Program-made: the position numbers and the translations under genes | Source of the DNA: an uncultured Verrucomicrobiota bacterium | GTDB lineage: Bacteria > Verrucomicrobiota > Kiritimatiellia > RFP12 > UBA3636 | Direction: 5' to 3' | Assembly (NCBI GenBank): GCA_949285835.1 | Contig: CASEAR010000044.1 | Location: forward strand, 3,248 to 67,247 | Length of the DNA stretch: 64,000 nt | Notes under the pieces: generated by a model | Told to the model about the DNA's origin: nothing | What the model saw: only the letters and a program-made list of their open reading frames with translations | The model's database searches: none | Shown here: piece after piece, positions 4,396-51,257 of the stretch | Layout: each line of letters starts with the position of its first letter | Numbering within the stretch: position 1 is the stretch's first letter

Positions 4396-4400
4396 TGTTT

Positions 4401-12429: not shown

Positions 12430-12829
12430 CGTCTGCGGGAGTATCAGCTGCTTGCGCAGCTCAAGCAATGAACATGGCGGCGAGGGAAGGGTCTTTCGTC
12501 CATTGTGATGGGGGCGCGCGGAGGACGCAGTTGTCCGTGCGGCGGCATCAGGATGCTTACTGCTGACGTGCGCGACAGGTTCCCGCGGTGCGGGGCCTGC
12601 GGGGGCGGATGGGTCTTCTCTTCAGGCCGTTTGTCTGACATGCTGCAAGGGTCGCTGAGCAATCAGAGACTTCTTTTGCTGCGGCGGGGTGCAGTGTGTG
12701 ATTTTATTCCGTTCAAAATGAGCCGGATTTGCGGCTCTTTCCTGCGGCCGGGCCGGGTCTCGGTGTTTTTGCTACACAATAGTGCTCCCCGGTGATATGA
12801 TTCCGGGATTCAATTTCAGGAGGAACAGG

Positions 12830-14038
12830 ATGCTATATCTTCTGCAGTATATGTCCAATGCGTACGGTCCGTTTCGCATGGCGGGGTCACATTTGATTTT
12901 GCTCTGCATGGGGACGTTGTTGTCTGCTTGTCTTGTTTTTTATTTTCTCCCGCGTTTATGGGACCGGCTGCCCAGGGATCGGGGGAAATCGCTCACTCCG
13001 GATGGAGATCGTTCCAAGGGGAAACCCACAGGCGCCGGCATAATTCTTTTTGTTCTGATATTGCCCGTTTTGTTTCTTGTCCTTCCAATTATTCCTTCCG
13101 GAGTTGAGACTGCCGGCGGAGCTGCAAGCCTTTCTGCAATTTTTTCAACGGTAAAGGACTATATTGTACACCATGAGAAGTGGTTTCTGCTGATAAACAG
13201 GCAGTGGATGATAGTGCTGTGCATGGTATTTGCGATGTATGTGGGTTTCCTGGATGACAAAGCAAGCACGGCCTGGAACAGGCGCAGGAAGCTTTTTTTT
13301 GATGTTTTAATATCGGTCGTTGCCGCAATGGTTCTGTGCAGGTTCCAGTCGATGGAATTATGGCTTCCGTTTTTCAAAGGCACATTTGTAGTTTCGTGGT
13401 GGCAGTATGTGGCCATAGGCACCATCGTGATGATAATCACCGTGAATTCCACAAATTGTTCCGATGGTGTGGACGGGCTGGCCGGGTCTCTGACTCTGGT
13501 GTCGCTTTCTGCCATGGGTGCGATCCTGTATGGGGTGGTTGGACATGAGGTGGTGGCAAATTATCTCTTGATTCCCCACACTCCGGACGGCGCCCGCTGG
13601 GCCATTTTATGCGGCGTGGTTTCAGGGGCTCTTGCCGGATACCTGTGGTATAATGCCGAGCCGAGTTCCGTGCTCATGGGGGACGCGGGATCTCGCCCTC
13701 TGGGTTTGCTTGTCGGAGTGATGGTTATGGCGTCTGGAAACCCTTTTCTGGTTTTTGTTGTTGCGCCGATTGTCGTAATAAACGGAGGAACTGGTATTCT
13801 CAAGCTTTTGATGCTTAAGCTGTTCGCAAAAATGGGGTTTGATATAAGCAAAGATAGTGCAGGCGCGGGCGGAAAGAAGAAGTCAGACATAGTGAGAATC
13901 GCCAACAAGATTCGTTTCCCGCTTCATGACCACTTCAGGCAGAAGGGATGGTCGAGGTCGCAGATTCTCGTCAGATTCATGCTCGTGCAGATGCTTGTTA
14001 TGCCCCTTTTGATACTGTTTGTTTTGAAAGTCCGCTGA
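12830..14038 (+). CDS. phospho-N-acetylmuramoyl-pentapeptide transferase-like glycosyltransferase family 4 protein (MraY/WecA family) with an internal insertion
   Basis: KGKPTGAGIILFV (MraY-like) and the NSTNCSDGVDGLAG active-site motif. AGGAGG RBS lies 6 nt upstream of the ATG at 12830. It is not embedded in a mur/fts cluster. Confidence 0.7.
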   Translation: MLYLLQYMSNAYGPFRMAGSHLILLCMGTLLSACLVFYFLPRLWDRLPRDRGKSLTPDGDRSKGKPTGAGIILFVLILPVLFLVLPIIPSGVETAGGAASLSAIFSTVKDYIVHHEKWFLLINRQWMIVLCMVFAMYVGFLDDKASTAWNRRRKLFFDVLISVVAAMVLCRFQSMELWLPFFKGTFVVSWWQYVAIGTIVMIITVNSTNCSDGVDGLAGSLTLVSLSAMGAILYGVVGHEVVANYLLIPHTPDGARWAILCGVVSGALAGYLWYNAEPSSVLMGDAGSRPLGLLVGVMVMASGNPFLVFVVAPIVVINGGTGILKLLMLKLFAKMGFDISKDSAGAGGKKKSDIVRIANKIRFPLHDHFRQKGWSRSQILVRFMLVQMLVMPLLILFVLKVR

Positions 14039-15230: not shown

Positions 15231-15386
15231 TGCCTCTGCGGCCGCGGCGGCCGGGTTTTGCCGCGTGGCAGTGCGGCTGGTGTGCGCCGCCGGGTATAAA
15301 TGCGCGGCGCATGGTGCGCGCCGGGCCCCGGCGTTCTTCATTATGTGCTTTTATTTGCAGGTGTACTTTGGTACCATAGCGAACTC

Positions 15387-16079
15387 ATGAGTGCTGACAG
15401 AAAATTTGATTTCCACTATGCGGTTGAGAACACCTTCATCATTCTTGCGCCTTCGGGACAGCTTGAGACGTTCGGCAACACGATTGTCAACTACAGCCTT
15501 GTTTCCGAGTCAATGGATGAGGTGGGGGTTTGCCGCATCAGAACCGGGCGCATGCAGCTTCTCAAGCCGCAGATTATTGCTCCGTCGGACTATTCCAAGA
15601 TGCTCCTTGAAGGGTTTGGCGAGGAGGCTCAGCGTTATGTTGAGTGGCTCGAGAAGCATAACGACGACATTCATATTCTGCGTTACGGCTATACGCTGAA
15701 GCAGGAGGCTTTCTCTGAGGAGACGGTGACCGGCGATTTCCGGGAAGTTCTGGAGCGTGTAAAGAAGGATGTTGAGGAGAAGAAAGATCCGTACAGGGCT
15801 GTCGTGGCAGGCGTGGATTCCCCGTGGGACGTGTGCCTTGTGAAATTGTTCTGGGTGATGGTGCGCCAGTCCGCCAAGAAGAATATCATGGACATGGCGA
15901 AGAAACACATGTTCGACAAGAGGGCTGCGATTTCTCCGGAGGTGCACGAGGAGATAGAGAGAGCTTTCGCTGCGGCTGGAAAAGATCCGTCTCTTGTGAA
16001 AGATCTCGGCGCTCTGCTTCAAAGACACAAGGTGTTTCCTATGTACGAGGATCGCTTTTTCTCTCTAATAGGCCACTGA
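15387..16079 (+). CDS. conserved hypothetical protein
   Basis: 230 aa with coding-like composition. ATG at 15387. I recognise no family. Confidence 0.45.
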   Translation: MSADRKFDFHYAVENTFIILAPSGQLETFGNTIVNYSLVSESMDEVGVCRIRTGRMQLLKPQIIAPSDYSKMLLEGFGEEAQRYVEWLEKHNDDIHILRYGYTLKQEAFSEETVTGDFREVLERVKKDVEEKKDPYRAVVAGVDSPWDVCLVKLFWVMVRQSAKKNIMDMAKKHMFDKRAAISPEVHEEIERAFAAAGKDPSLVKDLGALLQRHKVFPMYEDRFFSLIGH

Positions 16080-16118: not shown

Positions 16119-17414
16119 ATGAAAATGACTATTACAGAAAAAATACTTGCCCGCGCGGCTGGACTTGATTGTGTAAAACCCGGTGACAACATATGGGTCA
16201 ATGTGGATGTGCTGCTTACTCATGATGTATGCGGTCCGGGCACAATCGGCATTTTTCACAGAGAGTTCGGAAAAGACGCCAAGGTCTTCAGTAAGGAAGG
16301 CGTCGTAATAATTCCGGATCACTATATTTTTACGGCGGATGAAAAGGCGCACAGAAACGTTGATATTCTGCGCGAATTTGTAAAAGCGCAGGGATTGCCG
16401 TATTTTTACGAGCCGGGAACGCCTTCATACTGCGGAGTTTGTCATCTCGGACTGCCTCAGCATGGGCATGTAAGGCCCGGAGAAGTCATAATTGGCACGG
16501 ATTCGCACACCTGCAGTCACGGGGCGCTGGGTGCATTCTCCACGGGGGTGGGGAATACGGACGCGGGTTTCGTTATGGGAACCGGGAAGATGCTGGTCAA
16601 GGTACCTGAAACTATACGGTTTGTGCTTAACGGACGGAAGCCGGATTACATATCTGCAAAAGATATGATTCTTCGCATTATAGGTGATATCGGCGTCGAC
16701 GGGGCAATGTATTGCGCTATGGAGTTCACCGGAGATGCGGTCAGGGATTTGTCGATAGACGAACGCATTACCATTTGCAACATGGCGGTTGAGGCCGGGG
16801 CCAAAAACGGTATCATTCCTCCTGACGAAAAAACTTTCGAATATGTGCGGTCGCGTACGGACAAGGCGTTTGTCCCGGTTTACGGTGATGACGGCGCGCC
16901 TGTCATGAAGGAGTATGTGTACGACGTTTCGGAGTTTGTTCCCTGCGTCGCTAAACCGCATATACCGAGCAACTATGCGGCGGCGCGCGATTGTTCGGAC
17001 GTGGTCATTGATCGTGCGTACATAGGCTCGTGTACCGGCGGCAAACTTGACGATATGATCATGGCTGCCAGTGTTCTGGCCGGCCGCAAGGTCAAGGCGG
17101 AGACATTGATTGTCCCTGCGACTATGGAGATCGCTGATGCAATGAAAACAGTGAAAATCGGCGGGAAGAGCCTTGTGGATATATTTGAAGCCGCGGGATG
17201 CGCCCCGATTCCGCCTCCGTCATGTGCAGCCTGCCTCGGCGGTCCGGTTGATACATTCGGCCGTACGCATGGTTCAGAGGTTGTCATTTCTACGACGAAC
17301 CGCAACTTTATCGGACGTATGGGCTCCAAAAATGCACCCATATATCTCGCTTCTCCGCTGACAGCTGCGGCTTCGGCTGTAACCGGCCGCATAACCGATC
17401 CGAGAGACATCTGA
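16119..17414 (+). CDS. leuC: 3-isopropylmalate / (R)-citramalate / homoaconitate dehydratase large subunit (short archaeal-type LeuC)
   Basis: 431 aa aconitase-family large subunit with Cys ligands (CSHGALG, GSCTGGK). A small-subunit gene follows. Confidence 0.85.
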   Translation: MKMTITEKILARAAGLDCVKPGDNIWVNVDVLLTHDVCGPGTIGIFHREFGKDAKVFSKEGVVIIPDHYIFTADEKAHRNVDILREFVKAQGLPYFYEPGTPSYCGVCHLGLPQHGHVRPGEVIIGTDSHTCSHGALGAFSTGVGNTDAGFVMGTGKMLVKVPETIRFVLNGRKPDYISAKDMILRIIGDIGVDGAMYCAMEFTGDAVRDLSIDERITICNMAVEAGAKNGIIPPDEKTFEYVRSRTDKAFVPVYGDDGAPVMKEYVYDVSEFVPCVAKPHIPSNYAAARDCSDVVIDRAYIGSCTGGKLDDMIMAASVLAGRKVKAETLIVPATMEIADAMKTVKIGGKSLVDIFEAAGCAPIPPPSCAACLGGPVDTFGRTHGSEVVISTTNRNFIGRMGSKNAPIYLASPLTAAASAVTGRITDPRDI

Positions 17415-17439: not shown

Positions 17440-17976
17440 ATGAAAATAAAGGCAAAGGTATACGTACTGGGGGATAATATAGATACGGATCAAATAATTC
17501 CGGCTCAATATCTCAATCTTGTACCTACGATAAAGTCAGAGTATGACAAACTGGGGTCCTACGCTATGGCAGGGCTCCCGGAGACGGCGATCCCGTTTGT
17601 TGACAGCGCGACGGGGAAATCTCCGTACGGCATAATGATTGCTGGGCGCAATTTTGGCTGCGGATCGTCGCGTGAGCATGCCCCGGTGGCTCTTGGCGCT
17701 GCCGGGTGCAAGGCTGTGATCGCAGAGTCGTATGCGCGTATTTTCTTCAGAAATTCGGTTGCGACGGGAGAGGTGTATCCGTTTGAGACGCCGGTTTCGC
17801 TTGTTTCAGAATTTAAAACCGGGGATGAGGCCGAGCTGGATGTCGGTTCTGGCACTCTCATGCGTCTGTCTGATGGCAAGGTCTTCCCGTTGAAGAGTTT
17901 AGGCGCCGTTGCTCCTGTCGTGGAGGCGGGCGGGATGTTCGGGTATGCCAGAAAAGTTGGAATGATAAAATCCTGA
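17440..17976 (+). CDS. leuD: 3-isopropylmalate dehydratase small subunit (LeuD-like)
   Basis: 178 aa aconitase swivel-domain protein (YVLGDNIDTDQIIPA, GCGSSREHAP). Confidence 0.85.
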   Translation: MKIKAKVYVLGDNIDTDQIIPAQYLNLVPTIKSEYDKLGSYAMAGLPETAIPFVDSATGKSPYGIMIAGRNFGCGSSREHAPVALGAAGCKAVIAESYARIFFRNSVATGEVYPFETPVSLVSEFKTGDEAELDVGSGTLMRLSDGKVFPLKSLGAVAPVVEAGGMFGYARKVGMIKS

Positions 17977-17999: not shown

Positions 18000-18797
18000 A
18001 TGTCTACAAATATTGTTTCCATTGCAAATCAAAAGGGTGGAGTCGGCAAGACGACGACCGTTGTCAATTTGGCCGCCGTTCTGGCGGACATGGGGAGGAC
18101 GGTTCTTGTTGTCGATCTGGATCCGCAGGCGAATGCAACCTCGGGACTCGGGGTCGAGCCGCGCAGCGGTGTGAGCATATACTCCGCCGTATCCGGAAAT
18201 GAAGACATCGCTGATATTATTTCCGGAACGGCATTTGAGCGAGTCAACGTTGTGCCGTCGGAAGTGAATCTTGCGGGTGCGGAAGTGGAGCTCGCGCGGA
18301 TGGCGGATCATCTGCACTGGCTGGACGGTGTACTTGCCAAGGTTGTGGAATCTGAAGTCTTCGACTACATTTTGATAGACTGTCCGCCGTCGCTTGGTGT
18401 TTTGATGTCGAATGCATTGGCAGCATCAGATTCCGTGATCGTTCCGATGCAGTGCGAATATTATGCGATGGAAGGCCTGAGCATTATAACGAATCTTGTG
18501 AACCGGATCAAAAATTCAGGAGCTAATCCCAGGCTTGATATCGAGGGCATCGTGATGACAATGTTTACGAGAACGCGCCTATCGGAGGACGTTGTTGGAC
18601 AGGTGCGCGAACATTACCCTGATGTTGTTTACTCTACAATGATCCCGAGAAGTGTCAGGGCCGGAGAGGCTCCGAGCTACGGGATGCCGGTCGTCGAGTA
18701 TGCGCCTTCGTCGCCGGTTGCTGCGGCGTATCGTGATCTCGGGAAAGAGTTTTTGAAAAGACATAAAGCTTTTTTGAAGGAAAGACGGCGCAGATAG
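18000..18797 (+). CDS. parA: ParA/Soj-family P-loop ATPase
   Basis: Deviant Walker A KGGVGKTTT with DLDPQANAT. 265 aa. No parB gene follows. Confidence 0.85.
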   Translation: MSTNIVSIANQKGGVGKTTTVVNLAAVLADMGRTVLVVDLDPQANATSGLGVEPRSGVSIYSAVSGNEDIADIISGTAFERVNVVPSEVNLAGAEVELARMADHLHWLDGVLAKVVESEVFDYILIDCPPSLGVLMSNALAASDSVIVPMQCEYYAMEGLSIITNLVNRIKNSGANPRLDIEGIVMTMFTRTRLSEDVVGQVREHYPDVVYSTMIPRSVRAGEAPSYGMPVVEYAPSSPVAAAYRDLGKEFLKRHKAFLKERRRR

Positions 18798-18811
18798 TAT
18801 CGGAGATTGTG

Positions 18812-20188
18812 ATGTCGGGCACACAGAGTCGAAAACGTTCGCGATGGTCCAGTCAGATCGCTTTTATGCTTGCCGCTGCTGCGTCAGCTGTCGGCCTCGG
18901 CAACATATGGCGGTTCCCGTATCTTGCCGCCAAGCATGGCGGGGGAATTTTCCTGTTTGTATACTTGATTCTAGTTGTCACTTTCGGGTTTTCTCTTATG
19001 ATAGGCGAGGTCGCTCTGGGGCGGATGACAGGTCTCAGTCCGATAGAGGCGTTTCGCAAGCTCAAATCGCGATACGTATTCATAGGGTGGATACTCACTG
19101 CGATTCCGCTCATAATAACTCCATATTATTGCGTGATAGGGGGGTGGGTAACGAAGTACCTGCATCAGTATGTGCTGCTGATGTCGGGAAGCGAGGGCGT
19201 TGATACCGGGTTGTTTGTTTCCAATCCGGCTGCATATTTCGAAGGATTTATCGGAGGAGCGCCCGGTCCGATACTTCTGTATTCTGTCGTTTTTATCTTT
19301 TGCGTCTATGGTATCGTGCTCCTCGGCGTGCAGAAGGGTATAGAGATGAGCAACAAGATAATAATGCCTCTTTTGATTTTGATGTCTATTGCTCTGTGCA
19401 TTTATACTGTCACACTCCCCGGTGCAATGGATGGAATCAAATACTACCTTCTTCCTGACTTCTCGAAATTTTCATACAAGACGGTCGTTGGGGCGATGGG
19501 GCAGATGTTTTATTCTCTGTCTTTGTCCATGGGGATAATGATAACCTACGGCTCGTATATGCGCCCGGAGGACGATCTGGAGGGAAGTGTGCGGAGAATC
19601 GAGATCTTTGACACGGCGGTTTCGTTCCTCGCCGGGTTCATGATTATTCCCGCGGTTGTAATCTTTTTTGGAGCGGACAAGATTAACGCCGGTCCGGGGC
19701 TGATGTTTGAGACGCTTCCGAACATATTCAACAAGATGCCGTTTGCGGTCGGCGCTCTTTTTTTCCTGCTTGTGCTGTTTGCGGCTTTGACTTCGGCCAT
19801 ATCTCTTGCGGAAACATGCGTTGCATCACTGCATGATATTTTCAAACTTGAACGTCACGTTGCGTGTGCCATAATGTTTGTTTTTACGGTAATGATGGCG
19901 ATCCCGAGCGCGCTGGGGTACGGGGTGTGGAGCTCTGTGAAAGTCTGCGGCATGGCGTTTCTGGACTTTTTTGATTTTGTCTCCAATAACGTCATGATGC
20001 CGATAAGCGCGCTTCTTACATGCTTGTTCATCGGATGGGTCATAAAACCGGATGTCGTAGAAAAGGAAGTCACGCGCTGCGGCGGCCGGTTCAGCGGTAA
20101 ATGGCTTTTTGTCGTGATGACAAAATATGTAGCGCCGGCACTGATAGTTGTGATTTTCATAACTTTCGCATTTCGTTTCAAGATATGA
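18812..20188 (+). CDS. sodium-dependent transporter, neurotransmitter:sodium symporter (NSS/SNF) family
   Basis: N-terminal signature GLGNIWRFPY and 11-12 TM segments. The start lies 12-15 bp after the parA stop. Confidence 0.85.
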   Translation: MSGTQSRKRSRWSSQIAFMLAAAASAVGLGNIWRFPYLAAKHGGGIFLFVYLILVVTFGFSLMIGEVALGRMTGLSPIEAFRKLKSRYVFIGWILTAIPLIITPYYCVIGGWVTKYLHQYVLLMSGSEGVDTGLFVSNPAAYFEGFIGGAPGPILLYSVVFIFCVYGIVLLGVQKGIEMSNKIIMPLLILMSIALCIYTVTLPGAMDGIKYYLLPDFSKFSYKTVVGAMGQMFYSLSLSMGIMITYGSYMRPEDDLEGSVRRIEIFDTAVSFLAGFMIIPAVVIFFGADKINAGPGLMFETLPNIFNKMPFAVGALFFLLVLFAALTSAISLAETCVASLHDIFKLERHVACAIMFVFTVMMAIPSALGYGVWSSVKVCGMAFLDFFDFVSNNVMMPISALLTCLFIGWVIKPDVVEKEVTRCGGRFSGKWLFVVMTKYVAPALIVVIFITFAFRFKI

Positions 20189-21294
20189 CGGGAATGGATG
20201 ACTGGCGCCGGCAGTATGCTTCGCGTATTACTTCGCCGGGCGATCTGGCGGAATATCTCGGTATTCCATGTCCCTCGTCGGGTTGTTTTGCCGCATCCAG
20301 AATGTTTCCAATGGCAGTAACGCCATACTATGCCTCTCTTATACGCTTTCCGGTGGAGACGGATCCTGTTTTTCTTCAGTGTATGCCTTCAGGGTACGAA
20401 TTGCACAATCCGCCATGGCTTACGGAAGATCCGCTTGGAGAGGTACCATGCAGCATAGCCGGCAGACTGGTGCATCGTTACAGGGACAGGGCACTGATAA
20501 TTGCGACGTCGGAGTGTGCTTCATACTGCAGGCACTGCACTCGAAAACGCGTTTCATCACGAACGGCGCCACATATAACCGAACGGGAACTTGATGAATG
20601 TGCAAAATACCTGAAGCATCATCCCGAGATAGATGATGTTCTCGTGTCTGGAGGGGATCCGCTGCTGCTGGAAGACGGCGTCATCTGTATGATCCTTGAA
20701 CGCATCAGATCGGTGGCTTCTGTGAAAGCGATACGCATTGCTACACGCGCCCCAGTGACCATTCCCATGCGTATTACCGCAGAATTGGTGTCGGCATTGT
20801 CCGGGGTTAAGCCAATCTATGTGAATACACATTTTAATCATGTCAATGAGCTTACAGATTGCGCCATTGAAGCTTGTTCAAAACTTGTTGACGCCGGAAT
20901 TCCCGTGGCGAATCAGACGGTGCTCCTGCGCGGGGTAAACGATACGGCGGGGGCAATTGAGGCCTTGTGCAGAAAACTTTTTCATAACAGGATTCGTCCG
21001 TATTATCTCTTTCAATGTGACTTGGTGCGAGGGGTGGAGCATTTCAGGACTCCACTCGACACGGGGTTGGACATTATGAGAAATTTGCGAGGACGTCTCA
21101 GCGGTATGGCGATTCCGAATTTTGCTGTGGACTTCCCGGGGAAATCCGGCAAGATAGAGCTGCTGCCGCAGTATATTGTGGAGCGAACAGGAGATAGAAC
21201 CGTGTTTACCGGCAACAACGGTGAAACCGTAAGTTATCCTGAACCGGAGACCGGGTGGACGTCATGCAGTGGCATGTTTGAAGAACAGGGATGA
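20185..21294 (+). CDS. lysine 2,3-aminomutase-family radical SAM protein (KamA/EpmB-like)
   Basis: CxxxCxxC radical-SAM motif CASYCRHCTRKR and KamA-family colinearity. The ATG overlaps the transporter stop (ATGA). Confidence 0.8.
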   Translation: MTGMDDWRRQYASRITSPGDLAEYLGIPCPSSGCFAASRMFPMAVTPYYASLIRFPVETDPVFLQCMPSGYELHNPPWLTEDPLGEVPCSIAGRLVHRYRDRALIIATSECASYCRHCTRKRVSSRTAPHITERELDECAKYLKHHPEIDDVLVSGGDPLLLEDGVICMILERIRSVASVKAIRIATRAPVTIPMRITAELVSALSGVKPIYVNTHFNHVNELTDCAIEACSKLVDAGIPVANQTVLLRGVNDTAGAIEALCRKLFHNRIRPYYLFQCDLVRGVEHFRTPLDTGLDIMRNLRGRLSGMAIPNFAVDFPGKSGKIELLPQYIVERTGDRTVFTGNNGETVSYPEPETGWTSCSGMFEEQG

Positions 21295-22583
21295 ACAAGC
21301 TGTTTAAGGTGGACAAAAAGCTTTCGCCTTTGTGGCGTTATTCTTCGATCCTCTTTATTGTGCAGAGGCTTGGAGATGTCATAAACGCTTACATTGCGCT
21401 GTTTCTTGTGCCGCGGTATGTCCCGAAGGATGAGCTTGGCGCCGTGTTGCCGCTTCTTCAGGTGAGCGTCATTATCGGAATGCCGGTCTCTGTGCTGATT
21501 TATCCGTTTGGAAAGGTGCTGAATGCCTTCTCGGTCAGAAATGAACTTGGCAAAGTAAAGCGCCTCTTGAGGGATACCCTAGTTTTTTCTTTTGTTGTTT
21601 TCGTGGCGGCATCAATTCTGTCGGCTGTGTTCCTCCCGAAAATAATCAGCCGTATGCGTATTGAGAATGGGCGTCTTGCGTATTTTGTCGTCATAACAGG
21701 AATTGTCTGTGCCCTGTCTCCCGTCTTTACTACAGCGCTGCAGGCGTTGAGATCTTTCGGTACGATATATGCGGTGTCTTTTGGGCAATCAGTACTGCGT
21801 CTCTTAATTATGCTCGTTACGTTGCCAATTCGCGGTATTACCGGGTATTTTTCCGCGCAGTCGGCTACCGGGTTGTTTTCAATTGTGTCGTCAAGTGCCG
21901 CTCTTTACCGAAAGTACTTCCGGAATACGGAATATGCTCAGTACTCTCATGACGACAAAATGATGTTCATAAGATGGCTGATTCCGGTGGCAGTGTCTTC
22001 AGTTGTTTTTAATACGCAGACCATGGTTGAAATGTGGTCTATAAGGGGCCTGCCTGAAATACAGTCCGCCGCATATTATCACATAACGAGACTTTCTGAG
22101 ATTGTGACGTATATGGGAGGGTCCGTAATGTTCGTTCTCTTCCCGATAGCCTCTGCGAAATATGAAAACGGCGGTATTCCGAATTCAGAGATGCGCCAGT
22201 CGGTTTTTGTGACATTTCTGTCTGGCGCTGCGGTGGCCGTTTTTTTCTTTTTTGCAGGCCCTTTCTTGATGCGATTTGTTTCGATTTGGAAAAGCTACTC
22301 GTCATATGCGCACTGTCTGCCAATATTAACTCTCGTCGCGGCATTTCGTGTGGGTATGGGCTGTTTCACAACATGCCGTGTGGCATGCGGTAATTTTCGG
22401 CATTTATTTTTCACGATCCCGATTTCTTTGTGTGAATCTGCCGTGCTGATACTTATACCTCAGTTGTCCGATTCTCTTGCCCGGATATCGCTGACGATGC
22501 TGCTTTTTGCCGCGGCTTCTCCGATTGCCGCCGTTATTGTCTCGTATGGGCGGGGTCGCAAGCCTGAACGTTTGAGCTATTGA
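21291..22583 (+). CDS. MOP-superfamily (Wzx/MurJ-like) polysaccharide/lipid flippase-like membrane protein
   Basis: 430 aa with about 12 TM segments. A 4-bp overlap with the kamA-like gene implies co-transcription. The family call rests on topology only. Confidence 0.45.
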   Translation: MNKLFKVDKKLSPLWRYSSILFIVQRLGDVINAYIALFLVPRYVPKDELGAVLPLLQVSVIIGMPVSVLIYPFGKVLNAFSVRNELGKVKRLLRDTLVFSFVVFVAASILSAVFLPKIISRMRIENGRLAYFVVITGIVCALSPVFTTALQALRSFGTIYAVSFGQSVLRLLIMLVTLPIRGITGYFSAQSATGLFSIVSSSAALYRKYFRNTEYAQYSHDDKMMFIRWLIPVAVSSVVFNTQTMVEMWSIRGLPEIQSAAYYHITRLSEIVTYMGGSVMFVLFPIASAKYENGGIPNSEMRQSVFVTFLSGAAVAVFFFFAGPFLMRFVSIWKSYSSYAHCLPILTLVAAFRVGMGCFTTCRVACGNFRHLFFTIPISLCESAVLILIPQLSDSLARISLTMLLFAAASPIAAVIVSYGRGRKPERLSY

Positions 22584-23465
22584 TTCGGCATGCAAAGCAT
22601 GGGCGCTTTGCCGGGAACATTTTTTTGAAACTGCGCGGCTTTATTGCCCGGTATTCGGGCCGTGCAACTACCTCATATCCATTTGTCAAACAGGCAGCTG
22701 CACCACAATGATTTTGGGGCGCTCAGTTTGTTGTTGAGACGGCGGGACGTGCAGAGCTGCCGCGTAAAGTGCGCTCCGGCTCAGGGTCGCGGCCGTACAC
22801 CGCGGCGAACAGGTATGGTAACCGCGCAGAGCTGCCGTCATGCCTTTGTCCTTTGCGCTTGTATCCGGAATCCTGAGTCAAATTGTCCATCCGGGAATCC
22901 TGCATCTCATAAATGTTCTTTCTGCGCTTCTTCGCATCAATTCTTTTATCATTCCATTCAGTAGAACCTTTTCCTAAGACATGTTTTGATGCTTCCCCTG
23001 TCGATCTTTGTTCTGGCGGAAAACCTCGGGAGAAGTCCAGAGTTGAAAAACATCGTACCTTATCCATGGTGCGGCGGGATGCCTTGTATATGGTGGGCGC
23101 TCACATATGCAAGATCGAGCTGACGGCTGAACTTTGTCGTTTAATACTTGCCGTTGTTTCTGTCAGTGAGACGATTTATCGCAGCAATTTTTTTAGCGTT
23201 ATGCTTCAGCGCCGTTGTTTTGCCGGCGGGTTGCATCTTATGCATTGACTTGGGTGCGGTTTTTCAACGCTTCCCCTGTTGAGGCACGGAAAACAGTATG
23301 ATTTCCCAAGACCGAACTAAAAAAACTTAACAGGCGGCAACTTAACGTGCGGCCGCTGCAACATACTTGGCAAGCAGGGAAAGTCATCTCCGTATTACAG
23401 AATGTTTGACGCAGATTTTACCATATGTTTCACTGGCGCACGCATCCCGCTCGCAAGCGTCGTTT

Positions 23466-26620: not shown

Positions 26621-26683
26621 TTGACCGAGTGTGCGCATTTTTGCTAAATTGTCGTTCAAACGGCGTATTCGTAGTGAACGAAT
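26621..26683 (+). promoter_or_regulatory. putative sigma70-type promoter (TTGACC, 17-18 bp spacer, TGcTAAATT) followed by a 17-bp palindrome attcgtagtgaacgaat just upstream of the beta-barrel gene
   Basis: Sequence match to the -35/-10 consensus with an extended -10. The palindrome 26667-26683 sits between the promoter and the ATG at 26703. Confidence 0.35.
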
Positions 26684-26702
26684 CAGGTTTAAGGATCAGC
26701 CA

Positions 26703-28022
26703 ATGAAAAAAATCAATGTCTCGGTTTTTGCTGCTGCGGTTTTGGCTTTGGCAGTATCTTCGTCTTTGGCGATAGCTCTGGCGGAGTCTTCGAACAATCC
26801 ATTCGGTTTGTCCGTCAGTGTCGGTGTTTTAAGAACCGACAATCGCGATCAGATTGAAGACGGGATTATAGTAAATGACAAGCGCATAGAAAAGGACGAT
26901 GACACCGAAATTTCGGTGTCTGCCAAGATCTCGTACGATCACATGCTGCCCGGACGCTACATGATAAAGTTGTCGTATGAGCCATTCTACACATATTACG
27001 ATAATCCGCGTCCGAATTCCGAAGAGGAGGAGTGGTCGCACAATTTCAACGGCCGGTTTACTTATTTCTGGGGTGATCGTGCGAGCATAACACTGAAAGA
27101 CGACTACTGGTGGAGCGGCAACAGCGACTGGTACTACGGTGATGATTACGAGTATCTGAAAAATATGGACGATTCCTGGTCTGAGAGAAGCGATGACTAT
27201 TACGAGAATCGTTTTTCCGGTGACTTGGTTTATAACCTCTCCGAGGTGGACTACACGGTTTTGTCCTCCAAGTGGAGGGTCAAGCGTTACGACGACAGCG
27301 AGGTCGCGAGCAGTAATGATGAGGATGAGTTCAATGTTCGGCTGGCTTTGATGCGCAAGCTTTCCAGGTTTTTCCAGCTTGGCATATTTGCTGACTACAC
27401 GATGTTTGACAAGGACAGCGTAAATGACATTGATCTTGGCGTAGACTATGTCACTGTGGGTTTTCAGGGTGGCTATGATGTGTTCGGCGATCAGGCGCTG
27501 GTCATCAATGGCAGCATCGGCTACAACATGATGTCGTATGATGACAGCGACATGGATGACAAGGACATGCTCGGTGATTCTTCTCTTGAGCTTGTGTTTA
27601 CACCGCAGACAAGATTCAGAGGAAGCGTAGGATTGCGGTACGGAAATGTGTATTCCACAACTTATCCGTTTACGTCTGAGGACACGCTCGCGGTTTTCGG
27701 TACAGCAAGGTATATCCTTGGCAGCAACAATAGGTTTGCCGTCGGCGGACAGGTTGAATACCGCATGCGTGATTATGACCTTGAAGACTTGGATCCGGAT
27801 GTGGAAGAGGTTTCGGAGTATTATATGTCCCGGGAAGAACTTGCGTCGCGGTATGGAGATGCTAATCGTGACAGCATATGGCTTCGTCTTTACGTGGACT
27901 GTCACATAACATCATCAATGGATGCGACAGTGTTTTATACTCATGAGAGCGTGGACTCTAATTTTTGTTCAGAATATGACGAGAACATATTTGGTGTAAG
28001 GCTCTCGTACAAGTTTCTGTAA
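26703..28022 (+). CDS. exosortase/PEP-CTERM-system-associated outer-membrane beta-barrel protein
   Basis: Signal peptide MKKINVSVFAAAVLALAVSS. The sequence alternates amphipathic strands, is rich in D/Y/W, and ends with a C-terminal aromatic (..RLSYKFL). It heads a cluster with Wzz-BYK, Wza-like and amidotransferase genes. Confidence 0.6.
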   Translation: MKKINVSVFAAAVLALAVSSSLAIALAESSNNPFGLSVSVGVLRTDNRDQIEDGIIVNDKRIEKDDDTEISVSAKISYDHMLPGRYMIKLSYEPFYTYYDNPRPNSEEEEWSHNFNGRFTYFWGDRASITLKDDYWWSGNSDWYYGDDYEYLKNMDDSWSERSDDYYENRFSGDLVYNLSEVDYTVLSSKWRVKRYDDSEVASSNDEDEFNVRLALMRKLSRFFQLGIFADYTMFDKDSVNDIDLGVDYVTVGFQGGYDVFGDQALVINGSIGYNMMSYDDSDMDDKDMLGDSSLELVFTPQTRFRGSVGLRYGNVYSTTYPFTSEDTLAVFGTARYILGSNNRFAVGGQVEYRMRDYDLEDLDPDVEEVSEYYMSREELASRYGDANRDSIWLRLYVDCHITSSMDATVFYTHESVDSNFCSEYDENIFGVRLSYKFL

Positions 28023-28037
28023 AGTTGCTGCATATGG

Positions 28038-28060
28038 GACGCCGTGGTGTTTTCGGCGTC
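28038..28060 (+). terminator. GC-rich hairpin (gacgccg..cggcgtc) after the beta-barrel gene; no U-tract
   Basis: 7-bp perfect stem seen in the sequence. May act as an attenuator or terminator. Confidence 0.25.
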
Positions 28061-28167
28061 AGTTGGGTAAATATGATGCCGCGGTGACGTGTAATCTCAG
28101 GATTGCATCTGTCTGCGGCATCGTTTAATTAAACAGACGTTAGTTGTTCTAGATACGGTAAAGGCAT

Positions 28168-30324
28168 ATGGCGGAGAATATTGGTCAGAACGGCGGACTG
28201 AACGTACAGGCGGGCGTTCATGAGCAGGCGGAGAGCGTACATTTTCTTGACTATTGGCAGATGTTGTATGGACGAAAAGAAATAGTCATTGCCGTTTCTC
28301 TGATTATGTTTGTTTCCGGTATTTTTATAACGAGGAGCATGCCGAGGGTTTATGCGGCAAGCACGCTTGTTGAAATTCAGAGAGAAACAACGAATCTTGA
28401 TGTTTTCGGAACTACAATATCAAGGTACGATCCGTTTTTCCTCAAGACCCAGTTTGAGATAATAAAGTCTGATCCGATTATTGAGCAGGTGGTCCGGAAT
28501 TTGCGTTTCGATGAAATACTTGGTTCTGCGACGGGATGGAGCGCCAACAGCAGTCAAGCGGCTGTTTTCGACAGAACTGTCAAGTACGTGCAGGGGAACC
28601 TGCAGCTCGATATTTTGCGAGATACTCAGCTTGTTTCAATTACGATGAAATTAAGCGAGCCGAAAAATGAGGCTCCGCAATATGCTGTCAGACTGGTCAA
28701 TGAGGTTGCAAGGGTTTTCATGAACTGGACTCATGAGCGCGGGCTTGAGCAGAAGGAGCAAGGGCTGGAGACCTTGCGCGAAGAGATTGTGGAGGTGGAC
28801 AGGCAAATTTCTCAGAATGAGGACAAACTCGCGGAGATGCGTGCAAAGTACGGAATTACTGCGCTGTCAGATATTGACGCCGGTACTGCGTCCGTACGCT
28901 CGCAGATCTCGCAGCTTATGCCGGAGCGTATTCGCGCGGAAATGACGGCAAAAATCAAAGAGGCTAAGTATTCTCGTATCTTTGATTTGTCTACGGATGA
29001 AGCTGTGGCGGCGATTACCAGCATACTGAATGATTCATCCCTGTCTCCATTGGTTTCAGAGAAGCAGCGTCTGGAAATAATAGAACAGAAGAACGCAGAG
29101 GAATATGGGGAAAACCATCCGGAAGTTGTTCAGACGAAGGCGTTGCTGACGGCTGTGAACGGTAAGATAGAAGAGCGTGTCAACGAGATTAAGCAGGCGC
29201 TGCGGATGGATTATGAAATTGCTAAGCAGGAAGTGAACATAATAAACGGAAGACTCAAGGAAATGGAGGATGCAGAAAGGGAGCTTTCATCTGGTATATC
29301 TCTCGATTTTCAGAAGGCGATGACGGAATTACAGGCGCTCAAAGAACGCAAACTTATGCTCGAAGAGAGTCTTGTCCGGGAAAAGATGAAGATGAAGGCG
29401 GTGTCTACGAGTGTCCAGATCATACAACCGGCCAAAGATACGGAGAATCCGCTCCCTGTCAGTCCGAATTTCGCGTTGAATGTTATGCTGAGCCTCTTCA
29501 TCGGTTTGTTTTTTGGTGTTGTCATAGCGTTCTTTGTTGAATATCTTGACACGACGATCAAGTCGGTTACGGATCTTGAGAGATATCTTTCTGTTCCTGC
29601 CATAGGCATTGTCCCGCAAAAGATGCGATCACTGAATGATCCCGCGGCGCGTACGAAACATTCTGAGGTTTACCGCATAGTAAGAATGAACCTTAAATCT
29701 TCGAAGTCGCTTGGTGACGGCAAGGTCATTGTGATAACGAGTGCCGGTGCCGGTGAAGGAAAGAGCATGACGGCATTCAATTTGTCGTATGTGTGTGCAG
29801 AGATGGGTGAACGGGTTTTGCTTATTGACTGCGACTTCCATCGTCCGAGGCTGAACAAAATCTTGAATCTCCCGCGCGATCCTGGGTTGTGCAATGTAAT
29901 TGTCGGGGAGTCCGAGCTGGACGATACGATACACAAGGGCGTCGCGCAGAATTTGGATTTTATTTCATCTGGCCATTTGTCTACAGTTGGCGTATATGGT
30001 CTTGTTGATACGGATGAGATGCGTTCCGTTCTGGAATTTGCAAAGAGTAACTACGATCGAGTGATAATAGACGCTCCGCCTATAGTAGGCGTTTCTGATT
30101 CTTCTCAAATAGTTCGTATTTCCGACGGGGTAATAATGGTGGTTCAACATCGTAAATATCCGCGTTCCCTTTGCAAACGGGCCAAGGACACGATCGTCAG
30201 TATGGGAGGCAATCTCATTGGGTGTGTCCTCAACAACATCGATGTTTCCAAAGATTATTCGTCTTATTACTACAATAGCCAATACTACTACTATTATTCA
30301 TATCAAAACGATGCTGAGGCGTGA
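28168..30324 (+). CDS. polysaccharide chain-length determinant fused to a BY-family tyrosine autokinase (Wzc/EpsB-like, PEP-CTERM locus type)
   Basis: N-terminal Wzz-like region with a TM segment, a long coiled-coil and a second TM. C-terminal Walker A SAGAGEGKS and a terminal Tyr cluster YSSYYYNSQYYYYYSY. Confidence 0.8.
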   Translation: MAENIGQNGGLNVQAGVHEQAESVHFLDYWQMLYGRKEIVIAVSLIMFVSGIFITRSMPRVYAASTLVEIQRETTNLDVFGTTISRYDPFFLKTQFEIIKSDPIIEQVVRNLRFDEILGSATGWSANSSQAAVFDRTVKYVQGNLQLDILRDTQLVSITMKLSEPKNEAPQYAVRLVNEVARVFMNWTHERGLEQKEQGLETLREEIVEVDRQISQNEDKLAEMRAKYGITALSDIDAGTASVRSQISQLMPERIRAEMTAKIKEAKYSRIFDLSTDEAVAAITSILNDSSLSPLVSEKQRLEIIEQKNAEEYGENHPEVVQTKALLTAVNGKIEERVNEIKQALRMDYEIAKQEVNIINGRLKEMEDAERELSSGISLDFQKAMTELQALKERKLMLEESLVREKMKMKAVSTSVQIIQPAKDTENPLPVSPNFALNVMLSLFIGLFFGVVIAFFVEYLDTTIKSVTDLERYLSVPAIGIVPQKMRSLNDPAARTKHSEVYRIVRMNLKSSKSLGDGKVIVITSAGAGEGKSMTAFNLSYVCAEMGERVLLIDCDFHRPRLNKILNLPRDPGLCNVIVGESELDDTIHKGVAQNLDFISSGHLSTVGVYGLVDTDEMRSVLEFAKSNYDRVIIDAPPIVGVSDSSQIVRISDGVIMVVQHRKYPRSLCKRAKDTIVSMGGNLIGCVLNNIDVSKDYSSYYYNSQYYYYYSYQNDAEA

Positions 30325-30362
30325 GGACTGTTTCCTGTAATTATCATGGCGGTGGACATTAA

Positions 30363-31004
30363 ATGATGAACATCACAAAGAAGACACTTCCTGTTTTATT
30401 TTTTTCATATCTTATGTGCGGGTGCCTGTCGGTCTTTGACGGCTCTTTTCACGCCAATTCAAATTCATGGCGACCTCCGGTACCTGCACAGGTAAGCATT
30501 GAAAGCGCAGCAACCGGATCTCGTCCATTAAGGAGCGACGACGTGGTGGATATAATAGTAATGACCGGTTCTTCCGCTCCAATGCAGACAAGTGATGTCG
30601 TTGATACCGAGGGATGTGTTACGCTTCCGCTTTTAGGAGAATTTTCCGTCGGAGGATTGACGACGTCGGAAGCCGAAAAGGCAATATCGGAAGCGTATGT
30701 ATCCAAGCAGTATTTCAAGAAGGCTTCCGTTACTCTTGTCTGCAAAAACATGCTTCAGGAGTATGTAATCTACGTTACCGGCGCGGTAGTGCGTAAAGGT
30801 TCTCTCCCATATAAGGATGGCATAACGCTTTGGCAGGGAATTGTCGCCGCGGGAGACAGAACGCCGTTTGGGAGCGACAAAGTAAAGCTTGTGCGAAATG
30901 GGGTTACTACCACATACAGCATATCAAAGATTCAGAGCGGACGTGAGCCAGATCCGGTTCTGTTGCCGAACGATATGGTGGAAGTAGTGGAACGCTGGCT
31001 GTAG
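30363..31004 (+). CDS. polysaccharide export lipoprotein (Wza/EpsA-like Poly_export plus SLBB)
   Basis: Lipoprotein-like signal (LMCGC). The PLLGEFSVGGLTTSEAEKAI and AGDRTPFGS regions are typical of polysaccharide export proteins. Confidence 0.7.
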   Translation: MMNITKKTLPVLFFSYLMCGCLSVFDGSFHANSNSWRPPVPAQVSIESAATGSRPLRSDDVVDIIVMTGSSAPMQTSDVVDTEGCVTLPLLGEFSVGGLTTSEAEKAISEAYVSKQYFKKASVTLVCKNMLQEYVIYVTGAVVRKGSLPYKDGITLWQGIVAAGDRTPFGSDKVKLVRNGVTTTYSISKIQSGREPDPVLLPNDMVEVVERWL

Positions 31005-31023
31005 GAAGCCGGAGGCGGGGGAT

Positions 31024-31659
31024 ATGCCAGAGTTGTACGGAAAAGCCAGAAACGGCGTTGTTTTGTTTTTCTCTGGACTGCTTTTTCTAGCGGGTTTGTA
31101 CGGGGCCGTTTTTTCTTTAAGGGCGTCCGTATCGCAAACCGCATATCACGCGTGCAAATATGGTGTGTTTCGTGGAACGCAGTTCTGTACGCCTCCGGAG
31201 TCTGCTGGAGAGAATTTGTGGAACCAGTGCTATAAATCGTCCCTGCATTATCCCTACAACTACTATTTTTTCAGTTATGCGGCAAGATGCGCTTTTGATG
31301 CTGCATTGCGGTCTTCGGACTTGGAGCTTTTCGATGAACTGATGGACAAAGCGGATTTTTTTTCTGCTCGCGCGGTTTCTTTGAATCCGTACGATGAAGG
31401 TTCGAGGGATATCCGGGTTCGTGTGATTGCCGAAACAGACTCTGTGGATGGCGCGATATCTTATTGGCAAAGTGAAGTAGTTGATAAGGAACCATGGAGT
31501 TCAGTAAACAGGAATATGCTTGCTCAGCTGTATCTGCGGTCGCAGGCGGACGGGTCTTTTTCTAACGCGGTCATGCAGCTGCCCTTTGTCAGCGATGCAT
31601 CAATACGAAAGCGGTTGAATTCCGTTCGCGATAGACTTAATAAAAAGAAGAGCCAATAG
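31024..31659 (+). CDS. hypothetical membrane-anchored protein within the EPS locus
   Basis: 211 aa with an N-terminal TM helix. No recognisable domain. The call rests on position within the operon. Confidence 0.4.
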   Translation: MPELYGKARNGVVLFFSGLLFLAGLYGAVFSLRASVSQTAYHACKYGVFRGTQFCTPPESAGENLWNQCYKSSLHYPYNYYFFSYAARCAFDAALRSSDLELFDELMDKADFFSARAVSLNPYDEGSRDIRVRVIAETDSVDGAISYWQSEVVDKEPWSSVNRNMLAQLYLRSQADGSFSNAVMQLPFVSDASIRKRLNSVRDRLNKKKSQ

Positions 31660-31674
31660 ATTGAGATCGGTGAG

Positions 31675-33597
31675 ATGTGCGGCATAGCAGGTTTTTTTGG
31701 TGACGGCGCCAGGGAGAAGGCTGTCCGTATGGCGGAGGCGATGGTTTATCGCGGTCCGGATGACATGGGAATTTATGAAGAACCGGGGATTGCGTTTTCT
31801 CAGCGCAGGCTCAGTATTATTGACCTGTCAGGCGGACGTCAGCCTATAACCGATGAAAGCGGAGATTTGGTTCTTGTATGCAACGGGGAAATATACAATA
31901 GTCCGATTCTTAGAAAAGCGCTTCTAGATAAAGGGCACGTTTTCAAAACTAATACAGATGTTGAGGTCATTTTGCATTTGTATCAGGAAAAAGGGGATCG
32001 TCTGGTTTCTGATCTGAGAGGAATGTTTGCCTTTGCTCTGTGGGACAAATCACGCCGGCGTCTCCTTATGGCTCGCGATCACATGGGACAAAAGCCCTTG
32101 TTCTATGCAATTGGGAGCGGGGGAACTTTCGCATTTGCCTCTGAGGTTAAAAGCATACTTGCTTCAGATATCCTGGATCGTCGTCCTGATATTGACGCAA
32201 TTTGGCATTACATGTCGCTCAGATACGTGCCTGATAACAGGTCGATGTTCAAGGGAGTAATCAAACTGCCGGCTGCGCATTGTGCAGTATACGAGGACGG
32301 CAAAATCTCCGTATCGAGGTATTGGAGGCTTAACACTTTCAAGAATAAGATCTCCGGATCGGAACGGGAGCTTACAGACCGGCTTGAGAGTGTGCTTTTG
32401 GAGTCTGTAGGTACACATCTTTTAAGCGATGTTCCCGTGGGAACATTTTTAAGCGGCGGCATTGATTCGAGTCTTGTGACTGCGATGATGGCGAAAATAA
32501 CGGGCAGGTCCTTTCCTACATTTTCAATAGGGGTTAAAGAGCAAGACATAAATGAGCTCCCGTGGGCACGGATGATCTCCAGTAGGTATGGGCTGGATGC
32601 CCGTGAAGAAATCGTTGAGGCGGATGTTATTCATAAGATTCCAGAGATGGTTTACCATATGGATGAACCATCGGATCCGTTCGGCGTGGGCGTATATCTT
32701 GTTTCGCAGGTGGCCGCGCGGACAGTGAAAGTCGTGTTAACCGGCGATGGCGGGGATGAGAATTTTGCTGGATACGACAGGTTTGCCGGGCAAAAACTTG
32801 CAGGACTGTATTCAGTAGTCCCGTCGGCTTTGCGGAGGCATGTTTTCGGCAGAATCTTCAATCTTGTGCCGGAATCATTCGGGTACAAGAGCTTCGCCTC
32901 GAAGTTGAAGTGGCTCAATGACATGTCGTTTTTTTCTTCGGGCGAGCGGTACGCAAGGAGTATGTCGTTCCTTCGGTTTACCGACGAGGTTAAAGGATCT
33001 CTTTTTACCCAGTCTGCTCAATCCGCGCTTGAGAATTCTGATTCTGTGAGCAAAATCCTTGATTTCTTTAACGATGGCACTGCATCGGAGCTCCTTGATA
33101 AAATGCTTTATACGGATCTGATGACTCGCATGCCGGATCATCTTCTTGCGATTTCCGACAGAATGAGCATGGCTCATTCTATAGAGACCAGGCCTCCGCT
33201 TATAGACTACAAAGTCACGGAATTTGCAGCGTCGCTTCCTTGCAGTATGAAGTTGCACGGGAAGACGCTTAAGTATCTTTTGCGGAAGGTTTCCGAGAGG
33301 TATATGGACAAAAGGTTGATTGACAGACCGAAGCAGGGGTTCGGTTTCCCGATCGCAAGATGGATGCGCGGAGAGTGGGCTGCTTTCATGAAGCGCATTT
33401 TTCAGGAGTCCAGATTTGTGGAACTTGGCATATTCAAAAGAGATGAGATGTTAAAGCTTGCCGAGGAGCACATTTCCGGGCGTGCAGACCACAATTTCCG
33501 GCTTTGGATATTAATAAATCTTGAAGTTTGGCACAGGATCTGCGTTGAAGGTATGTCTTTGGATGATGTCAGGGAGTTTATAGACGCTGCATTATGA
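31675..33597 (+). CDS. asparagine synthase (glutamine-hydrolysing) family amidotransferase, exosortase-system-associated type
   Basis: MCGIAGFFG N-terminal nucleophile and a C-terminal synthetase domain with SGGIDSS. 640 aa. Located inside the PEP-CTERM EPS cluster. Confidence 0.85.
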   Translation: MCGIAGFFGDGAREKAVRMAEAMVYRGPDDMGIYEEPGIAFSQRRLSIIDLSGGRQPITDESGDLVLVCNGEIYNSPILRKALLDKGHVFKTNTDVEVILHLYQEKGDRLVSDLRGMFAFALWDKSRRRLLMARDHMGQKPLFYAIGSGGTFAFASEVKSILASDILDRRPDIDAIWHYMSLRYVPDNRSMFKGVIKLPAAHCAVYEDGKISVSRYWRLNTFKNKISGSERELTDRLESVLLESVGTHLLSDVPVGTFLSGGIDSSLVTAMMAKITGRSFPTFSIGVKEQDINELPWARMISSRYGLDAREEIVEADVIHKIPEMVYHMDEPSDPFGVGVYLVSQVAARTVKVVLTGDGGDENFAGYDRFAGQKLAGLYSVVPSALRRHVFGRIFNLVPESFGYKSFASKLKWLNDMSFFSSGERYARSMSFLRFTDEVKGSLFTQSAQSALENSDSVSKILDFFNDGTASELLDKMLYTDLMTRMPDHLLAISDRMSMAHSIETRPPLIDYKVTEFAASLPCSMKLHGKTLKYLLRKVSERYMDKRLIDRPKQGFGFPIARWMRGEWAAFMKRIFQESRFVELGIFKRDEMLKLAEEHISGRADHNFRLWILINLEVWHRICVEGMSLDDVREFIDAAL

Positions 33598-51235: not shown

Positions 51236-51257
51236 AACCTGTTCCCGCTTTCCTCAT

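Follow-up and report, generated by a model that had tools for sequence, protein, structure and literature searches.

The stretch of DNA analysed here, referred to as the window, comprises 64,000 nucleotides (nt) from an uncultured Verrucomicrobiota bacterium (Kiritimatiellia; RFP12; UBA3636), at positions 3,248 to 67,247 of the forward strand of contig CASEAR010000044.1 (assembly GCA_949285835.1). Our study concerned the interval 18000–22583, in which genes for a ParA-like ATPase, an NSS-family symporter, a radical SAM enzyme of the KamA family and a membrane protein (P4) follow one another on the same strand. An initial annotation of this DNA had regarded the combination as unusual and had proposed that the four genes form a single operon, its tasks being uptake, beta-amino-acid conversion and then either export or lipid-linked transfer. 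Each of the four proteins belongs to a known superfamily, and the source class, Kiritimatiellia in the PVC group, was also indicated by the names attached to homologues of P4 and KamA. The four open reading frames (ORFs) are given below, with product lengths in amino acids (aa).

18000–18797, + strand, ParA-like ORF, 265 aa
18812–20188, + strand, NSS ORF, 458 aa from an ATG, with an alternative GTG start at 18809
20185–21294, + strand, KamA-family radical SAM ORF, 369 aa
21291–22583, + strand, P4 (membrane protein) ORF, 430 aa

The close packing of these ORFs was confirmed from the sequence itself and from L176, a conspecific metagenomic contig (99 % identical) on which an independent gene caller predicted products of 265, 458, 369 and 430 aa with identical overlaps. 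Junctions of 12, 4 and 4 bp had been proposed. Both of the 4-nt junctions were present as ATGA stop/start overlaps, at 20185–20188 between NSS and kamA and at 21291–21294 between kamA and P4, but the first junction required correction, as the TAG of parA ends at 18797 and the NSS ATG lies at 18812, leaving a spacer of 14 nt with a GGAG located 6 nt upstream of that ATG. The genes do not stand by themselves. The run starts upstream of position 18000, with 23 nt between the end of leuD and parA, and extends as one co-directional series, fmt-orf259-leuC-leuD-parA-NSS-kamA-P4, up to a long non-coding spacer. The remaining features of the run that bear on the argument are as follows.

15300–16079, + strand, orf259, conserved hypothetical gene, the first of a conserved block orf259-leuC-leuD-parA
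16119–17414, + strand, leuC-type large subunit of the aconitase/isopropylmalate dehydratase family (NF001614, 472 bits against a cutoff of 385)
17440–17976, + strand, leuD-type small subunit (TIGR02087, 122 bits against a cutoff of 109)
22584–23465, no strand, non-coding spacer of 882 nt that terminates the co-directional run, with feoB converging from the other side

On this and the following evidence, we consider it probable that the interval is the tail of a co-directional run in the chromosome and not a four-gene functional module, each gene having a separate function. The proposal of a single operon draws on the 14-nt gap followed by two 4-nt overlaps, and on the lack of a conspicuous internal terminator-like site. 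A terminator or promoter that would partition the run was sought, and terminator-like sites were fewer than in shuffled sequences, with none being convincing. However, unrelated genes throughout the window are joined just as tightly. Among the genes identified across the window, 19 of the 38 co-directional adjacent pairs were separated by ≤25 nt, and overlaps were found in 8, of which 6 were of 4 nt. Tightly joined pairs without a functional relation included amidohydrolase/uvrB, ddl/S49 peptidase and panB/ftsZ, and ATGA overlaps were likewise seen at unrelated pairs such as the first two of these. As short gaps and 4-nt overlaps are the baseline across the window, the tightness of the four genes is not special, and the genome is generally compact, which accounts for the short junctions.

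The window is otherwise ordinary chromosome, carrying truA, ileS, uvrB, nusA-infB, ddl-ftsQAZ, panB and one tRNA-Asp. Recent horizontal acquisition of the interval was considered and rejected, as a GC fraction of 0.50 at 18–22 kb, compared with 0.47–0.55 elsewhere in the window, shows no compositional anomaly. Just downstream of the P4 stop codon, a T-run follows short hairpins. The 882-nt spacer held no ORF of at least 150 aa, although the gene caller used for L176 predicted a 55-aa ORF in the corresponding position, and a scan of the spacer against Rfam returned nothing at gathering score, with only a chance-level NiCo match (E 0.87). It contains two short two-copy direct repeats, one of which is a 21-nt imperfect repeat at 22984–23004 and 23262–23282 (81 %).

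Conservation of the four-gene order in related genomes had been put forward as a check of the proposed module, and it did not sustain that proposal: the order ParA-NSS-kamA was recovered in one other lineage only, and P4 was next to kamA in no relative outside this species. The contexts of KamA sampled within Kiritimatiellia represented approximately nine lineages. The closest non-conspecific relatives of the window KamA, at 62 % identity, were in L012/L013, L014 and L182, loci that carry NSS proteins 90–96 % identical to one another and that constitute one genus-level group, effectively a single lineage. Here the gene order is orf259-leuC-leuD-parA-NSS-kamA, and identities to the window are 83–86 % for LeuC, 83 % for LeuD, 66–67 % for ParA and approximately 50–56 % for NSS. 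The NSS and kamA genes overlap by 4 nt in the window and by 1 nt in L012/L014. The gene that follows kamA in this lineage encodes a soluble protein of 374 aa that does not resemble P4. This protein (L012:6404–7528; L182:6656–7780) has no family match, and its gene, which begins after a 12-nt gap, stands where P4 stands in the window.

Six further Kiritimatiellia lineages (L006/15, L008/9, L010/11, L016, L184 and L185) harboured an orthologous short KamA of 57–61 % identity, and in these six no ParA, NSS or MOP gene was found near kamA. Phylogenetic inference by neighbour joining (NJ) placed the window KamA together with those of L012/L014, as sister to this solitary group, and the NSS proteins of the window and L012/L014 likewise formed a clade (NJ bootstrap 182/200). 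As both trees group the window with L012/L014, the NSS-kamA junction is likely to have arisen once, in their common ancestor. In the six solitary lineages, kamA converges on a conserved ORF of 129–152 aa, which is followed by a giant ORF of 900–1970 aa (L006:9096–15113, L008:8612–11810, L010:9031–14947, L184:2662–8613, L185:4584–10621 and also L016). The smaller product shows 65–81 % identity among these loci, carries the motif NPQYDGLFR.TA.F.AGYGS and has no Pfam or NCBIfam match, and homologues of neither ORF were found in the window.

The first gene of the interval is better understood through its upstream neighbours. ParA is a Soj-type protein by sequence, a Soj-like nucleoid-partition ATPase with a deviant Walker A motif (KGGVGKT, residues 12–18) and matches to AAA_31 (3.2e-58, 197 bits) and CbiA (86.6 bits), and its best PDB matches were a ParA family protein (8RAY, 3e-64) and Thermus Soj (1WCV, 3e-58), in agreement with the initial annotation. 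It resembles Thermus Soj and Helicobacter pylori Soj (6IUB) in its equal length, deviant Walker A and strong full-length similarity, but differs from them in having no adjacent parB, in its conserved placement after leuCD and in scoring below the NCBIfam ParA_partition cutoff (100 versus 180). The reported lack of a ParB partner held, as no ParB domain was detected among window ORFs of at least 150 aa scanned with Pfam, and none was encoded downstream of parA in L012, L014, L182 or the more distant L039. The parA gene follows leuD in the window, in L012–14, in L182 and in L039. Homologues of orf259, for which there was no Pfam or NCBIfam match, were found by tblastn directly upstream of leuC in L012, L014, L182 and L039 (49–58 % identity), and the LeuC of L039 is 68 % identical to that of the window. 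In L039 the orf259-leuCD-parA block is intact, NSS is absent and kamA, here in a long form, is reached only after another 6.6 kb, beyond genes for Ham1, GFO/IDH, Dtd, GrpB and TetR. As the block persists in L039 without NSS and with kamA at a distance, the conserved association of ParA is with leuCD and not with kamA, which further argues against a role for ParA in a four-gene module.

The second gene encodes, by sequence, an NSS/SNF-family, MhsT-like Na+/amino-acid symporter. The Na+-dependent amino-acid-type importer initially annotated here was thus recovered, with matches to PF00209 (1.1e-62, 212.9 bits against a cutoff of 27) and NF037979 (130.2 bits against a cutoff of 50). Its best solved relative is MhsT of Bacillus halodurans (4US3, 1.2e-75), which was matched over residues 5–454, the full length of the protein, followed by LeuT (E 4e-42). 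The TM1 GLGN motif and the TM6/TM8 motifs of MhsT and LeuT are conserved (TM, transmembrane segment), although the TM6 segment reads FYSLSLSMG as compared to FFTLSLGMG in MhsT. MhsT is a transporter of hydrophobic amino acids. A search for pocket changes specific to lysine found 17 clade-specific NSS substitutions, none of them to an acidic residue, which is a negative hint only. Among 80 metagenomic relatives of the transporter (50–56 % identity, GC 0.34–0.59), none had KamA as a neighbour. In L182, which is 97 % identical to L012, an indel of approximately 22 nt splits NSS into ORFs of 398 and 67 aa (4135–5567, compared with L012:3840–5315), while kamA and the gene for the 374-aa protein are intact; the split reflects either true pseudogene formation or a mistake in the assembly.

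The third gene encodes a KamA-family radical SAM enzyme with the CASYCRHC motif, as initially described, and it passed the KamA subfamily model TIGR00238 (290.2 bits versus a cutoff of 199.2). Comparison against the EpmB and AblA profiles, which the initial annotation had recommended, upheld the family but reached neither equivalog. The best-scoring equivalog model was AblA/KamA (TIGR03820, 373.3 versus 525.4), and EpmB (TIGR03821) scored 247.4 against a cutoff of 369.3. The protein is 41 % identical to lysine 2,3-aminomutase (LAM) of Clostridium subterminale (2A5H) over 357 aligned residues. Residues C111, C115 and C118 of the window KamA align to C125, C129 and C132 of LAM, and K323 to K337, the lysine that binds pyridoxal phosphate, while R120, D279 and D316 align to the carboxylate-binding R134 and the epsilon-amino-binding D293 and D330. 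The CxxxCxxC motif, R134, D293, D330 and K337 were invariant in 85/85 aligned family members, in which C268 is usually not conserved. As the catalytic and lysine-binding residues are retained, lysine is the predicted substrate, and on these alignments the enzyme most likely converts L-lysine to beta-lysine.

Two other substrates were examined and rejected. Against the glutamate-aminomutase model (TIGR04368) the score was 340.9 with a cutoff of 650, and against the arginine-aminomutase model it was 301 with a cutoff of 600. In glutamate 2,3-aminomutase the D293/D330 pair is replaced by Lys and Asn, and this pair is retained in the window KamA.

The Zn site of LAM is missing from the window KamA, with Thr in place of C268 and a chain that stops at approximately LAM residue 375, without the CxCxxC motif (LAM C375/C377/C380), making this a short form without the C-terminal Zn–Cys cluster. 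In comparison with the LAM of C. subterminale and the AblA of methanogens (TIGR03820), the window KamA shares the CxxxCxxC motif, the pyridoxal phosphate lysine, R134, D293 and D330, but scores below the AblA cutoff, lacks the Zn ligands and has neither an ablB acetyltransferase nor lysine-fermentation genes nearby, according to Pfam scans of the window ORFs. The subfamily to which it belongs has no curated equivalog and no known physiological role.

An alternative is that KamA is a functional EpmB for the beta-lysylation of EF-P, in which case it would be a housekeeping gene in an arbitrary position and its neighbours would be coincidental. E. coli EpmB (YjeK) is a protein of 342 aa that likewise has neither the C-terminal domain nor the Zn site of clostridial LAM, and the window KamA resembles it in family, in its short length (369 aa) and in these absences. 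In addition, kamA is a single, solitary gene whose context varies among the relatives from Kiritimatiellia and Verrucomicrobiota, as would be expected of a housekeeping gene, and the native EF-P of the PVC group has been reported as a lysine type, its modification being unknown (PMC11388002). Despite this, the EpmB score of 247 bits is below its cutoff of 369 and well under the AblA score of 373, and identity to E. coli EpmB is 33 %, compared to 41 % for LAM. The absence from the window of the canonical partners EpmA, efp and AblB, noted initially, was borne out: no EF-P, EpmA or AblB-like gene was identified by Pfam among window ORFs of at least 150 aa. By tblastn, E. coli EF-P had no match in the window or in approximately 100 KamA-locus flanks, and in the same set the only matches to E. 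coli EpmA were full-length class II aminoacyl-tRNA synthetases in L006/L015. In Planctomycetes with an EpmAB system, epmB has been reported to lie beside efp in most cases (PMC11388002). The wider KamA subfamily is linked not to translation genes but to another set of genes, described below, and we regard the EpmB explanation as very improbable.

That set of genes was revealed by 80 GTDB species-representative KamA loci (L015–L094), in 59 of which Ddl-like ATP-grasp genes were located within 2.5 kb of kamA. The typical arrangement contains two Ddl-like ATP-grasp ligases, one of them having a GNAT acetyltransferase fused to it or encoded after it, as exemplified by L050:9809–13736, L019:9815–13816 and L058:76–3893, and its hosts are PVC bacteria, Ignavibacteria, Deltaproteobacteria and some archaea. 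The ATP-grasp proteins fall below the D-Ala-D-Ala ligase cutoffs and no protein of the cluster reaches a curated equivalog. By analogy to the synthesis of N-acetylglutaminylglutamine amide (NAGGN), its product may be an N-acetylated beta-lysine peptide or osmolyte, although this is speculation. The window KamA is 43–55 % identical to the KamA proteins of these clusters, with identical active-site residues, but its own locus lacks the ligases and the GNAT gene. Within the short-form Kiritimatiellia KamA clade, including the window, ATP-grasp/GNAT genes were not nearby, and the window has no Ddl-like gene other than the ddl of the division cluster (52016–52942). No description of a KamA, ATP-grasp and acetyltransferase cluster was found in the literature searched, nor anything relevant that linked Kiritimatiellae or Kiritimatiellota with an aminomutase or beta-lysine.

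Within the interval, some evolutionary support exists for one sub-unit only, NSS-kamA. This pair may link the uptake of an amino acid to the formation of beta-lysine, and as the stop codon of NSS overlaps the start codon of kamA in each of the two lineages concerned, the two genes are probably co-translated. A second alternative is accordingly a two-gene unit in which NSS imports lysine or a related substrate and the coupled KamA converts it to a beta-amino acid for a use encoded elsewhere, for instance in an osmolyte, a peptide or a protein modification, with ParA and P4 as bystanders. This would fit the conservation of the NSS/kamA overlap, the trees in which the pair has been kept since a common ancestor of the window and L012/L014, and the intact catalytic and lysine-binding residues of KamA. 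However, the pair is confined to one small clade, being absent from the six lineages with a short KamA, from the 80 GTDB KamA loci, where NSS was a neighbour in none (0/80), and from the 80 NSS relatives. The transporter is closest to MhsT, of the hydrophobic amino acids, with no clade-specific acidic residue that would hint at a cationic substrate, and its reading frame is broken in L182 where kamA is intact, which is possibly an assembly error. Adjacency at this divergence can also be simple inheritance. The retained adjacency is weak evidence of a functional link, and we consider a two-gene unit rather unlikely, although it has more in its favour than the other alternatives discussed here.

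The fourth gene was initially annotated as a Wzx/MurJ-like exporter. Structure prediction and fold searches indicated that P4 has approximately 12 long helices in a two-lobed MOP fold, based upon an AlphaFold model built from 42 homologues (predicted local distance difference test, 91.8; predicted template modelling score, 0.89). The MOP fold was thus supported, but MurJ was not: P4 has approximately 12 helices versus 14 transmembrane segments and 430 aa versus about 510 aa, and it did not reach the MVIN/MurJ model. Sequence profiles were far less informative, and in the comparison of MurJ, Wzx and MATE that had been suggested, the fold searches returned MOP but the profiles could not separate Wzx from MATE. 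P4 had no match in Pfam or NCBIfam, phmmer against the PDB gave a chance match only and a search of the PDB with the family profile yielded 0 matches. PF01943 was matched by 1/42 family members and MatE, weakly, by 3/42, and the window P4 matched neither of these, nor PF13440. When the family alignment was compared by hhalign to E. coli WzxE, RfbX, WzxC, MurJ and MdtK, all probabilities were <10 %. P4 differs from the Wzx/PST flippases (WzxE, PDB 9G9x) and from MATE proteins in lacking any such sequence-level match.

Homologues of P4 numbered 70 among 5.8 billion proteins, the nearest outside the species being 41 % identical, and every source name that carries a taxon is Kiritimatiellia. Two are fused to an RgpF domain and eight are named O-antigen/teichoic acid exporters by JGI. 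Five homologue loci, which represent three distinct contexts, were examined and KamA was present in none. In L001/L002 and L005 the homologues lie among glycosyltransferases (GT) of families GT1, GT2, GT4 and GT8 and NAD-epimerases, with a methyltransferase too in L001/L002, and in L003/L004 they are downstream of a Mur-ligase gene. P4 of the window has an exosortase/EpsI pair (4401–6247) on one side and a set of Wzc-like, Wza-like and AsnB-like genes (28168–33597) on the other, and is 4–8 kb from the latter without being contiguous with them. Judged by its modelled fold and the context of its homologues, P4 is probably a Wzx-type polysaccharide-unit flippase, and a role in the exosortase/Wzc/Wza polysaccharide system is the most economical reading of this gene.

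Pieces of an exosortase/PEP-CTERM-type polysaccharide system occur in two parts of the window. At 4401–6247 (− strand), an exosortase EpsH gene and a DUF3485 (EpsI-like) gene overlap by 4 nt, and 26631–33597 (+ strand) encodes a 463-aa protein without a family match, a Wzc-like GNVR/AAA_31 protein, a Wza-like Poly_export protein, a 211-aa protein of unknown function and an AsnB-like amidotransferase. A MraY/WecA-family GT4 phosphotransferase of 418 aa is encoded at 12782–14038 (+ strand), adjoining fmt; it scored 125 bits against a mraY cutoff of 192 and is distant from the ddl-ftsQ-ftsA-ftsZ cluster (48910–52942). Elsewhere, a Lentisphaerae metagenome-assembled genome (L036:9693–13907) carries a long-form KamA gene, followed by an OppD/F-like ABC ATPase gene and then a MatE transporter gene. 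Apart from the window, this was the one locus seen with a MOP-superfamily gene close to KamA.

The L036 arrangement, in which MatE is the second gene after a KamA homologue, and the MOP fold of P4 itself would favour the operon of uptake, conversion and export. P4 is, however, apart from kamA outside this species and its homologues reside mostly in polysaccharide clusters, and with ParA tied to leuCD this operon appears highly unlikely. Under the interpretation that we prefer, the tail of a co-directional run, a housekeeping block of orf259-leuCD-parA would have been joined by NSS-kamA in one Kiritimatiellia sub-lineage, and P4 would have been placed after NSS-kamA in this species only, belonging functionally with the neighbouring polysaccharide export genes. 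There it would most likely flip an undecaprenyl-pyrophosphate-linked sugar unit for the nearby Wzc/Wza/exosortase system.

Several points weigh against this interpretation. The order ParA-NSS-kamA and the NSS/kamA stop/start overlap have been kept in two lineages that differ considerably in sequence (KamA 62 %, NSS approximately 50–56 % identity), and the sampling of close relatives is thin, amounting effectively to two lineages. The Wzx assignment of P4 draws upon fold and homologue context, with profiles that cannot separate Wzx from MATE. A single long transcript may also extend over all four genes.

A bolder proposal is that NSS was recruited in this clade specifically to supply a lysine 2,3-aminomutase, the two being translationally coupled and the beta-lysine passing to a further use, which in this species could be the decoration of a lipid-linked glycan flipped by P4. 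We think this unlikely, and give similarly little credence to the more general idea of a new use of beta-lysine behind the NSS-KamA couple, whether or not P4 takes part. We know of no characterised NSS that is coupled to an aminomutase, and if the proposal were true, beta-lysine would have a new physiological role and this would be the first case of an NSS coupled with an aminomutase.

In summary, the interval warns against defining a pathway by ATGA overlaps and short gaps alone when the genome is compact. P4 represents a divergent family of MOP transporters, so far seen only in Kiritimatiellia, that is missed entirely by current sequence models. The KamA subfamily is notable in that every determinant of a lysine aminomutase is kept in proteins that have no curated equivalog, and that in other phyla are mostly linked to ATP-grasp ligases and GNAT acetyltransferases.

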